Source: Escherichia coli O157:H7 (GTDB lineage: Bacteria > Pseudomonadota > Gammaproteobacteria > Enterobacterales > Enterobacteriaceae). Taken from it: a stretch of 64,000 nucleotides of DNA. The notes beneath the pieces are model-generated. The model was not told where the DNA came from, made no database searches, and saw only the letters and a program-made list of their open reading frames with translations. Within the stretch, counting starts at the first letter, position 1, and each line of letters begins with the position of its first letter. The position numbers were made by a program, and so were the translations under genes. Location of the stretch: the NCBI RefSeq assembly GCF_013167455.1, contig NZ_CP038328.1. One strand, 5' to 3'. Of this stretch, positions 43,306 through 46,364 are shown piece by piece.

Positions 43306-44961
43306 ATGGAATTTTCGTTTTCACCCAAACTTCTTGTTGTTGCTGTCGCCGCCGCTCTTCCTCTCATGGCCAGCGCAGCAGATACCCCGTCAACTGCCAC
43401 CGCGCGCAAAGGCTTTGCCGGATACGATCACCCAAACCAGTATCTGGTTAAACCGGCGACCACTATTGCCGACAACATGATGCCAGTAATGCAGCATCCG
43501 GCGCAGGATAAAGAACCCCAGCAGAAGCTGGCAGAACTTGAGAAAAAAACCGGTAAGAAACCGAATGTGGTTGTTTTCTTGCTGGACGATGTGGGCTGGA
43601 TGGACGTCGGTTTTAACGGTGGCGGCGTGGCGGTGGGTAACCCTACACCAGATATCGACGCCGTTGCCAGCCAGGGGCTGATTTTAACTTCGGCGTATTC
43701 TCAACCAAGCTCTTCCCCAACCCGCGCCACCATTCTCACCGGACAATACTCCATCCACCACGGCATTCTGATGCCGCCAATGTACGGGCAACCGGGCGGG
43801 CTGCAAGGGTTAACCACGCTGCCGCAGTTGCTGCACGATCAGGGCTACGTCACTCAGGCCATCGGGAAATGGCATATGGGGGAAAACAAAGAGTCGCAGC
43901 CGCAGAACGTTGGCTTTGATGATTTCCGTGGCTTTAACTCGGTGTCTGATATGTACACCGAATGGCGCGACGTTCACGTCAATCCGGAAGTGGCCCTGAG
44001 TCCGGACCGTTCTGAATACATCAAGCAATTACCATTTAGCAAAGATGACGTTCATGCGGTGCGCGGCGGCGAACAACAGGCCATTGCCGACATTACGCCG
44101 AAATATATGGAAGATCTGGATCAACGCTGGATGGAATATGGCGTTAAGTTCCTCGACAAGATGGCGAAGAGTGATAAGCCTTTCTTCCTCTATTACGGCA
44201 CTCGCGGCTGTCACTTCGATAACTACCCGAACGCCAAATATGCGGGTAGCTCTCCGGCACGCACCTCGTATGGCGACTGCATGGTGGAAATGAACGATGT
44301 GTTCGCTAATCTGTATAAAGCACTGGAGAAAAACGGTCAGCTTGATAACACGCTGATTGTCTTTACCTCCGATAACGGACCGGAAGCCGAAGTACCGCCG
44401 CACGGACGCACACCGTTCCGTGGTGCGAAAGGATCTACCTGGGAAGGCGGCGTTCGCGTACCGACTTTCGTTTACTGGAAAGGCATGATCCAACCGCGTA
44501 AATCTGACGGTATTGTTGATCTGGCAGATCTCTTCCCAACAGCACTGGATCTGGCGGGGCATCCTGGTGCGAAAGTGGCGAATTTAGTGCCGAAAACCAC
44601 CTTTATCGATGGTGTGGACCAGACATCTTTCTTCCTGGGAACAAATGGTCAGTCTAACCGTAAGGCCGAGCACTACTTCCTCAACGGTAAACTCGCTGCT
44701 GTGCGTATGGATGAATTCAAGTATCACGTCCTGATTCAGCAACCTTACGCTTATACCCAGAGCGGATATCAGGGTGGATTCACCGGCACAGTAATGCAAA
44801 CAGCCGGATCGTCGGTGTTTAACCTCTACACCGATCCGCAGGAGAGCGACTCTATCGGCGTGCGCCATATTCCGATGGGTGTACCGCTACAGACCGAAAT
44901 GCACGCGTATATGGAGATCCTGAAAAAGTATCCACCACGCGCGCAGATTAAATCTGATTAA
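43306..44961 (+). CDS. aslA: Arylsulfatase-like protein AslA (Ser-type sulfatase)
   Basis: 551-aa ORF with signal peptide and sulfatase signature [12 protein letters not shown] (Ser at the formylglycine position). Confidence 0.95.
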
Positions 44962-44989
44962 GCCGGCGCTATCGCTGAGATCTGCCTTT

Positions 44990-45093
44990 GCCGGATGCGA
45001 TGCTGACGCATCTTATCCAGCCTACAGAACGCTGCAATTTATTGAATTTGCACGATCATGTAGGCCGGATAAGGCGTTTACGCCGCATCCGGC
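44990..45093. repeat. BIME: two inverted REP elements
   Basis: gccggatgcgatgctgacgcatcttatccagcctaca and tgtaggccggataaggcgtttacgccgcatccggc in inverted orientation between convergent aslA and aslB. Confidence 0.85.
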
Positions 45094-45128
45094 AATCAAC
45101 CGCAGGCGACCACAAAATGGCCGCTTTT

Positions 45129-46364
45129 TTACTTACTCACCACCAGCAAATGCGCCTGCATAATGTCGCTGGCCGGGCGACCGTGCGCCAGCAAATCAGC
45201 CATTGCTTTAAGATATGGCGGTAGATGGCGGAAATAACGCTGATACCCGGCACACAAATAATTCAGTCCCGGTTTGCCGCTGGCATCGAGCATGAAGCGG
45301 TGTTTCGGGCAGCCTCCCCAACATGCTTTTAACACGTTACAACTGCGACACTGCGCCGGTAATTGCTTAAATTTATCTTCACCAAACACCTGCTGTTGCG
45401 GGGAATCGATCATTTCTGCAATTGTTTGCTGGTGCATATTCCCCAGTCGATATTGCGGATAAACATAGTGATCGCAGGCGTAAACGTCGCCATTGTGCTC
45501 AACAATCACCGAGCGCCCACAGGTTGGCTGATGATGGCAAACCGCACCCGGCGCACCGACAAAATTGGCAAACGCCCATTCGATATTCATCACGAAAATC
45601 TTGCCGACGTCGCGTTTAATCCAGTGGTCGAATATCGCCACCAGAAATTCACCAAATTCATCGGGGCGCACAGACCATTCCGTCAGTTCCCCCTGAATAT
45701 CACCAGGCGCATGTAGTTTCAGTCCTTCGCGGGCAGTCGTTTCATCAGCCAGGCGCTCGACCACCGGAATAAACTGGATGAATTCGACTCCCGCATCGCA
45801 CAAAAAATCATAAACCTGTAACGGTTGCTGCGCGCTGGTGCGGTTGACGCAGACCAGCACGTTATAGTCGACATGATGTTTTTGCAGGAGCGTCAGGGCA
45901 CGCATCACCAGTTTATGCGTGGGTCTGCCGCCTTTTGTCACGCGATATTGATTGTGGATCTCAGCCGGACCATCCAGCGATAACCCAACAAGAAAATGAT
46001 TTTCTGCCAGAAATGCACACCATTCATCATCGAGCAGTACGCCGTTAGTCTGGAAGCTGTTACTTATCTTCCTGCCAGCACCATATTTCGCCTGTAGCGC
46101 CACGGCACGGCGGTAAAACTCCAGCCCGAGTAGCGTTGGTTCGCCGCCCTGCCAGGTAAAAGCCACTTCGTTTTGCGGTTCGCTGGCAGCGATATAGTGA
46201 CGGACATACGCTTCCAGCGTGTCATCGTCCATATGCGTGACTGGCTTTTCGCGGTAAAGGGATTGTTTTTCGAGATAAAAACAGTAGTCACAGTTCAGAT
46301 TACAATCGGAACCGCTCGGTTTCGCCATCACATGAAAAGCACGCGTTGGAACCTGTTGCAGCAT
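45129..46364 (-). CDS. aslB: Anaerobic sulfatase-maturating enzyme homologue (radical SAM)
   Basis: Start at MLQQVPTRAFHVMAKPSGSDCNLNCDYC (411 aa); CxxxCxxC radical-SAM cluster motif. Confidence 0.95.
   Translation of the reverse strand: MLQQVPTRAFHVMAKPSGSDCNLNCDYCFYLEKQSLYREKPVTHMDDDTLEAYVRHYIAASEPQNEVAFTWQGGEPTLLGLEFYRRAVALQAKYGAGRKISNSFQTNGVLLDDEWCAFLAENHFLVGLSLDGPAEIHNQYRVTKGGRPTHKLVMRALTLLQKHHVDYNVLVCVNRTSAQQPLQVYDFLCDAGVEFIQFIPVVERLADETTAREGLKLHAPGDIQGELTEWSVRPDEFGEFLVAIFDHWIKRDVGKIFVMNIEWAFANFVGAPGAVCHHQPTCGRSVIVEHNGDVYACDHYVYPQYRLGNMHQQTIAEMIDSPQQQVFGEDKFKQLPAQCRSCNVLKACWGGCPKHRFMLDASGKPGLNYLCAGYQRYFRHLPPYLKAMADLLAHGRPASDIMQAHLLVVSK

Follow-up and report, generated by a model that had tools for sequence, protein, structure and literature searches.

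How is a serine of a sulfatase in Escherichia coli turned into formylglycine, and is the enzyme encoded beside that sulfatase the one that does so? The question is raised by aslA and aslB, a sulfatase gene and a radical S-adenosylmethionine (SAM) maturase gene that face each other on the chromosome of E. coli O157:H7 (NCBI RefSeq assembly GCF_013167455.1, contig NZ_CP038328.1), within a stretch of 64,000 nucleotides that was analysed as a whole and that we call the window. The pair occupies positions 43306-46364, from the start codon of aslA to the start codon of aslB. It is an already known, annotated pair, as the original prediction had said: RefSeq O157 genomes annotate both open reading frames (ORFs) identically, under the names aslA and aslB, and the surrounding 3.9 kb match many E. 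coli O157:H7 chromosomes at 100% identity and K-12 BW25113 at 97.4%. The convergent layout, claimed to lie across a bacterial interspersed mosaic element (BIME), is likewise borne out by the ORF coordinates and by two inverted repetitive extragenic palindromes (REPs) in the spacer. Since the maturation of Ser-type sulfatases by radical-SAM enzymes is textbook knowledge in this field, the discovery value of the pairing as such is low. Our reading is that aslA and aslB probably form a two-gene sulfatase module, in which AslB matures Ser136 of AslA before export. The pair is laid out as follows.

43306-44961, plus strand: aslA, 551 amino acids
44962-45128: convergent spacer between aslA and aslB, 167 bp
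45129-46364, minus strand: aslB, 411 amino acids from the ATG

A Ser-type sulfatase beside a complete maturase

By domain and signature, AslA is a family S1 (formylglycine-dependent) sulfatase. Pfam PF00884 matches residues 86-418 with 241.5 bits (cutoff 25; E=1.6e-71), and the S1 signature S-x-P-x-R-xxx-L-T-G begins at Ser136, within the peptide singled out by the original prediction (residues 135-146). In HMMER alignments Ser136 falls on formylglycine-69 of human arylsulfatase A (1e1z), its counterpart in PsFucS1 (7aj0) is the catalytic Cys, and the metal-binding and catalytic motifs LLDDVGW, GKWHMG and TSDNGPE are conserved with respect to both structures. A Cys-type reading of AslA was considered and rejected; the sole cysteines of the protein, 302 and 325, are not near the motif, and the aligned residue is Ser136. 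The closest solved structure is 7aj0 (341 bits over residues 52-544), that of PsFucS1, a member of subfamily S1_13 whose catalytic residue is numbered Cys111 (PMC8484680), and this best hit suggests that AslA belongs to S1_13 as well. In the translation, the N-terminus shows a hydrophobic core, a predicted cleavage after A-S-A (an AxA site) and no twin-arginine motif; it reads as a putative Sec signal peptide, with a periplasmic location predicted for the protein.

43306-43377, plus strand: putative Sec signal peptide at the AslA N-terminus, read from the translation
43711-43713, plus strand: codon TCT for Ser136, the predicted formylglycine precursor, by alignment to solved structures

AslB, for its part, is by family membership a radical-SAM/SPASM anaerobic sulfatase maturase. 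It matches Pfam PF04055 and PF13186 together with TIGR04085 (SPASM), and it aligns over residues 12-392 with anSMEcpe, the anaerobic sulfatase-maturating enzyme (anSME) of Clostridium perfringens (4k36; E=4.6e-65). Its motif C21-NLN-C25-DY-C28 is a CxxxCxxC aligned to CNLKCTYC of anSMEcpe, and all eight auxiliary cysteines, as well as the Asp that follows Cys297, align with 4k36; in the published structure of anSMEcpe the corresponding cysteines are numbered 255/261/276/317/320/326/330/348. What the original prediction had said of the two proteins held on re-inspection: the formylglycine position of AslA carries Ser (TCT) and not Cys, aligned to known sites; the scan returned PF00884 and the S1 signature in AslA and PF04055 in AslB; and the radical-SAM motif of AslB is present, together with a complete SPASM domain with eight cysteines.

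46281-46304, minus strand: codons of C21-x3-C25-x2-C28, predicted radical-SAM [4Fe-4S] ligands, by alignment to anSMEcpe
45252-45539, minus strand: SPASM region with Cys276/282/297/339/342/348/352/371, predicted ligands of two auxiliary [4Fe-4S] clusters
46370-46375, minus strand: AAGGAG, ribosome-binding site of aslB, 5 nt upstream of its start codon (46364)

An upstream TTG start for aslB (46394) was rejected; the ATG at 46364 has AAGGAG 5 nt away and is the RefSeq start.

Which substrate, then, do the family models assign to AslB? Against the equivalog TIGR03942 (anaerobic sulfatase maturase) it scores 518.7 bits, where the cutoff is 349.45. AslB also scores on models for maturases of RiPPs (peptides that are made by the ribosome and modified after translation), for example 204 bits on DynA, all under their cutoffs. 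Such scores lend something to a rival explanation, which we regard as possible but the less probable course: AslB might be a general maturase, or have another main client (YdeN, YidJ or a non-sulfatase peptide), with AslA as just one client among others or as an expendable one. That TIGR03942 is the sole equivalog model whose cutoff is passed speaks against this explanation; more weight on either side of it comes from the conservation of the pair and from the genomes that have lost aslA, both discussed below.

How AslB would mature AslA

The maturation chemistry, and the order in which maturation precedes export, are taken here from established anSME and AtsB biochemistry and would apply to AslA and AslB by analogy. 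The mechanism of anSMEs and their dual Cys/Ser specificity have been described (PMC7771511, PMC10114670), and the three-cluster enzyme of the AtsA/AtsB type oxidises a sulfatase Ser (PMC10114670, PMC7771511). On this model AslA would be synthesised as a precursor that bears a Sec-type signal peptide, and AslB would bind the segment around Ser136 of the still unfolded protein in the cytoplasm. Reductive cleavage of SAM at the CxxxCxxC [4Fe-4S] cluster would yield a 5'-deoxyadenosyl radical that abstracts a C-beta hydrogen of Ser136, and the electron would exit via the two SPASM auxiliary clusters, leaving C-alpha-formylglycine in place of the serine. Matured AslA would then be exported by Sec to the periplasm, where hydrated formylglycine and a bound divalent metal would hydrolyse sulfate esters. 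The two genes would be transcribed separately and convergently; aslA would be read from an AT-rich, reportedly H-NS-bound spacer that it has in common with the constitutive glmZ promoter, and aslB from a separate region that lies downstream of the terminator after proM.

The pair in relatives of AslA

That AslB matures AslA is suggested by homology and by conserved adjacency. The comparison covers the best 120 AslA homologs, with 60-99% identity (P0001-P0120), among which the motif AYSQPS[S/C]SPTRATI[L/M]TGQY is near-invariant save for the formylglycine residue itself. At that position 33 of the proteins have Ser and 84 have Cys, the other 3 being truncated and without the motif; all named enterobacterial homologs in the set (E. 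coli, Salmonella, Citrobacter, Kluyvera, Superficieibacter and Enterobacter) have Ser. The Ser codons used at the site are TCT, TCA, AGT and AGC, and because they come from two codon families, either of which is a single step away from Cys TGY, the switch between Ser and Cys has probably happened more than once in the AslA family.

Gene neighbourhoods were informative for nine homologous loci outside E. coli (a tenth, from Salmonella, tells nothing about a neighbour, as its contig stops at the sulfatase gene). A radical-SAM/SPASM gene adjoins the sulfatase gene in six of the nine. For the Ser-type loci the count is 4 of 5: the maturase-like gene is convergent in Citrobacter, in Uliginosibacterium and in a deltaproteobacterium, and co-directional and overlapping in one metagenome contig. 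Cys-type loci have such a neighbour in two of four cases, one of which also has a gene for a formylglycine-generating enzyme (FGE). The two-gene module, its convergent layout included, is conserved across proteobacterial classes, and its conserved adjacency supports a functional link between aslA and aslB as good comparative evidence. The same adjacency, seen across phyla, is also a point against AslB as a general maturase.

Two of these loci differ from E. coli in where the cassette sits. The convergent aslA-aslB cassette of Citrobacter adjoins maeB/tktB, not glmZ, with a spacer of 43 bp (L014 5001-7938), and the Salmonella aslA homolog is likewise beside maeB (L013 5001-6653). The E. coli position, the AT-rich leader and the BIME are lineage-specific on this evidence, and the shift in location may be linked to the loss of sigma-54/GlrR elements upstream of E. 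coli glmZ.

Loss of aslA and persistence of aslB

What becomes of aslB where aslA is gone? One and the same deletion junction occurs in 1,729 of 5,426 complete E. coli genomes (~32%). It joins codon 46 of aslA to the last bases of REP-1, the left REP of the spacer, and RefSeq labels the 138-nt aslA stump a partial arylsulfatase pseudogene.

43445-45023: segment absent in the deletion allele, aslA from codon 47 on together with REP-1, 1,579 bp

The distribution of the deletion agrees with the literature, in which ST410 and sequence types of phylogroup B1 are reported to lack aslA (PMC8844930). The presence of aslA has been correlated with invasive and B2 isolates (PMC11879602, PMC11565901), and one survey of these two describes the gene as acquired. 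The deletion allele explains how aslA came to be scored in surveys as a B2- or invasion-associated 'virulence gene'; in other words, its 'presence' there stands for one lineage-specific deletion elsewhere, rather than for acquisition.

In all eight deletion genomes sampled (L002, L015-L021), aslB is a full-length ORF of 411 codons with every cluster cysteine. The eight sequences have 31 synonymous and 15 non-synonymous polymorphic sites, a ratio of non-synonymous to synonymous polymorphism (pN/pS) of 0.15. Several points here speak for the general-maturase explanation introduced above: aslA is deleted in almost a third of genomes, the maturase is intact and constrained in those sampled, and anSMEs touch mainly the peptide backbone of their substrates, one enzyme often serving many sulfatases (PMC7771511). 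On the other side, the sample is eight genomes only, and the aslB diversity of the deletion allele may be partly imported by recombination from aslA-positive strains. We take the intact aslB as a hint that AslB is useful without AslA, a hint drawn from a small sample in which recombination may inflate the apparent constraint. The loss of aslA itself goes back to a single ancient deletion. Tentatively, and with the odds in our judgement against it, we put forward that AslB has a client or role beyond AslA. What would follow if this were true? AslB would work in trans, maturing other sulfatases (for example YdeN) or an unrecognised peptide substrate, as its outliving of aslA in the deletion lineage hints, and the 'virulence gene' aslA would be an ancestral state that was lost once.

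A 16-nt string in aslA, CTTTGCCGGATACGAT (43413-43428), has 15/16 identity to the head of REP-1 plus the four bases that precede it (44986-45001). The string sits just upstream of the left deletion breakpoint, a placing that could be chance or could have favoured misalignment. That the likeness drove the deletion was considered and rejected: the junction lies 16-22 nt downstream on both sides and has no microhomology, and it is left unexplained.

Points against the module and other routes to formylglycine

Several observations weigh against AslB as the maturase of an active AslA. The persistence of aslB in genomes without aslA means that AslA is not the sole reason for AslB, and one of the Ser-type loci outside E. 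coli (P0024) has no adjacent maturase gene. AslA scores 106.1 bits against the NCBIfam arylsulfatase equivalog NF010322, whose cutoff is 481, and is not a member; because the score is so far under the cutoff, 'arylsulfatase' is only a nominal description, even if the RefSeq product name is 'arylsulfatase AslA'. In the literature we found no experiment with formylglycine or sulfatase activity in E. coli AslA and no direct demonstration that AslB matures AslA; little there is specific to the pair. Benjdia and co-workers are reported to have found in 2007 that heterologous Cys-type sulfatases are matured in E. coli when aslB and ydeM are missing, from which it would follow that other maturation routes exist in E. 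coli. AslB and YdeM are themselves still called 'putative' anSMEs (PMC8379841).

Could AslA, then, be matured by something other than AslB, such as YdeM or a third E. coli system, with the adjacency of the two genes a matter of history? E. coli is suspected of having a third system that forms formylglycine, and Ser-type sulfatases recovered from this host have been active when no maturase was added (PMC8379841). The gene next to aslA nonetheless encodes a complete anSME, and an adjacent anSME is kept in four of the five Ser-type loci outside E. coli. Oxygen-dependent FGE-type chemistry, moreover, acts on Cys and not on Ser. We regard such an outside maturase as the most improbable of the three rivals considered, and the two-gene module, with AslB acting on Ser136, remains our preferred reading.

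Is the pair expressed?

A further possibility is that the module is a cryptic remnant, transcriptionally silent and functionless in present-day E. coli, whose Ser site is never matured. The evidence here turns on the region upstream of aslA, which the original prediction had described as a long, AT-rich promoter region, likely silenced.

41431-42627, plus strand: hemY
42675-42881, minus strand: glmZ small RNA
42709-42680, minus strand: glmZ intrinsic terminator hairpin
42882-43305: AT-rich spacer between glmZ and aslA
42888-42917, minus strand: glmZ sigma-70 promoter ATGTTA-N15-tggCATAAT, an exact match to the published promoter
42921-42950, plus strand: candidate aslA promoter TTAACA-18-TGTAAT, an exact match to the string in PMC3946193

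The gap between hemY and aslA is 678 bp, of which 207 bp are glmZ (SraJ) on the minus strand; Rfam RF00083 matches there at full length (1-214) with 218.4 bits (gathering 60). The AT-richness that was claimed stands and the length does not, for the gap holds glmZ with its own promoter and terminator, which leaves a divergent spacer of 424 bp instead of 678. From the glmZ +1 to the aslA start codon these 424 bp have 31.8% GC, which places them in the lowest 1.9% of 424-bp windows across the 64 kb. The glmZ sigma-70 promoter has been mapped in K-12 by deletion and point mutation (PMC3045617). In a genomic SELEX (systematic evolution of ligands by exponential enrichment) study of K-12, carried out in vitro, the aslA-glmZ spacer, entered as "aslA < HNS > glmZ", binds both RpoD holoenzyme and H-NS, and TTAACA-18-TGTAAT was proposed as the aslA promoter, as a prediction (PMC3946193). 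In the window this candidate abuts the glmZ -35 back to back, ~355 bp upstream of the aslA ATG, so that the leader would be ~350 nt. For engineering or expression work on aslA this arrangement matters, as any change must respect the back-to-back promoter of a well-studied regulatory RNA.

Our own scans added little. The sigma-70 scan gave 4 sites against 5.4 expected from shuffles, no enrichment, with no strong match for aslA or aslB, and a scan for the H-NS high-affinity motif gave one 8/10 match, which is uninformative. Silencing of aslA by H-NS is plausible, to judge by the AT-richness and the K-12 in vitro entry in the literature. Foreign origin of the two genes, which AT-rich upstream DNA might suggest, was rejected because their GC (aslA 52.8%, aslB 51.5%) is in line with the window average of 51.6%.

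For aslB, the upstream neighbour is a tRNA operon that ends ~120 bp before the gene.

46511-47173, minus strand: argX-hisR-leuT-proM tRNA cluster
46484-46505, minus strand: intrinsic terminator of the argX-hisR-leuT-proM operon, a 9-bp stem with 6 GC pairs followed by a T-run

Transcription of aslB by read-through from this operon was considered and is unlikely, given the strong terminator at 46505-46484. Because that terminator parts aslB from the operon, aslB probably has its own promoter.

How does the cryptic remnant fare on this evidence? The AT-rich spacer listed as H-NS-bound, the lack of a strong sigma-70 match in our scan for either gene and the loss of aslA from about one third of sequenced genomes all fit it, and we know of no report of arylsulfatase activity in laboratory E. 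coli. Set against these points is strong constraint: among O157, K-12 and a B2-like strain pN/pS is ~0.03 for aslA and 0.06-0.10 for aslB, and purifying selection of this strength on aslA argues that it is not a dead gene. The catalytic motifs are all intact as well, transcript changes of aslA have been reported in E. coli K1 (PMC9147696), and the presence of aslA tracks invasive and B2 isolates (PMC11879602, PMC11565901). A functionless remnant is in our estimate unlikely, by a shade less so than maturation by an enzyme other than AslB.

The convergent spacer

Between the stop codons of the two genes lies a BIME with two REPs.

44988-45095: BIME, comprising REP-1 (44988-45025), a 34-bp centre and the inverted REP-2 (45060-45095)

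The outer arms of REP-1 and REP-2 are complementary at 12/12 positions, and REP-2 has an internal stem. When the 3.9-kb segment is used as a query, the median number of matching places in an E. coli genome is 24, and REP-2 by itself also has hits in unrelated records, from which it follows that the REPs of the spacer are dispersed repeats; further REP heads occur within the window at 108 and 29055. The centre of the BIME holds an IHF-like candidate, ATTCAATAAATTG at 45035-45047 on the minus strand, with one mismatch to WATCAANNNNTTR. The element may be of the BIME-1 (RIP/RIB) subtype. Its role is probably confined to that of a 3'-end or insulating element.

The spacer varies between strains. 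In the B2-like strain AVS0543 the BIME is reduced to a single hybrid REP (window 45013-45083; L004 3269-3395) in a spacer of 90 bp; the same strain has an extra hypothetical ORF of 591 nt between hemY and glmZ (L004 415-1005). In the deletion allele the BIME has lost REP-1. At window positions 45104-45131, by eye, other strains have after the BIME a perfect hairpin, GCGGCCA-CAAAA-TGGCCGC, and then TTTTTT, which resembles a terminator for aslA that overlaps the stop codon of aslB; the O157 stem has a G-to-A mismatch, and K-12 has a 9-bp deletion there.

Other features of the window

Beyond the pair, the O157 argX-hisR-leuT-proM operon contains a 226-bp tandem duplication (46733-46946, minus strand) that gives it a second leuT. 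The duplication comes with a chimeric pseudo-tRNA at 46739-46813 (minus strand), made of the 5' part of proM joined to a 3' end like that of hisR (34.6 bits in Rfam); the crossover seems to have fallen within the T-arm that the two share. In K-12 and other strains the operon has four tRNAs, and the RefSeq tRNA list is without the chimera. Further along, the thrP/yifK gene follows.

47276-48661, minus strand: thrP/yifK

The only other stretch of the window that is comparably AT-rich is 23207-26095, a strain-variable islet between corA and rarD. It encodes proteins of the DUF3289/YPO3983 and DUF943 families, is replaced by yigF-yigG in K-12-like strains and is complete in no more than 1,407 of 5,426 genomes.

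Comparison with known systems

The nearest parallel to the aslA-aslB pair is AtsA/AtsB of Klebsiella pneumoniae, in which a periplasmic S1 sulfatase of the Ser type is likewise encoded beside a three-cluster radical-SAM/SPASM maturase. In Klebsiella the two genes run in the same direction, atsB and atsA sharing an operon that is regulated by sulfur supply; aslA and aslB, in contrast, are convergent, separately transcribed and parted by a BIME. AslA also appears to belong to a different subfamily from AtsA, its best solved relative being PsFucS1 (S1_13), and it falls short of NF010322. Activity is proven for AtsA/AtsB, whereas AslA and AslB are known here from their sequences.

Among maturases of solved structure, anSMEcpe (PDB 4K36-4K39) is like AslB in its CxxxCxxC motif, its eight auxiliary cysteines and an Asp beside the third one. 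The two differ in setting, for anSMEcpe serves a Cys-type sulfatase in a strict anaerobe and AslB is encoded beside a Ser-type sulfatase in a facultative one, and AslB is longer by ~20 residues around 200-225. The fucoidan-active PsFucS1 (7AJ0), to which AslA is nearest among solved structures, shares its catalytic motifs but is a Cys-type enzyme with an unusual C-T-S-S-R where AslA has S-S-P-T-R. PsFucS1 acts on sulfated fuco-oligosaccharides, a specificity that is not transferable to AslA.

The spacer, too, has a known counterpart. Like BIME-1 (RIP/RIB) elements it contains two imperfect inverted palindromes of ~36 bp, is extragenic and repeated in the genome, and has a candidate IHF-like site in its centre; it differs from them in that this site has one mismatch to WATCAANNNNTTR and in that the element varies between strains. 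Finally, aslA-aslB is not alone in its host, as ydeN-ydeM and yidJ-yidF, which lie outside the window, are by established annotation further E. coli sulfatase genes beside AtsB-like genes.

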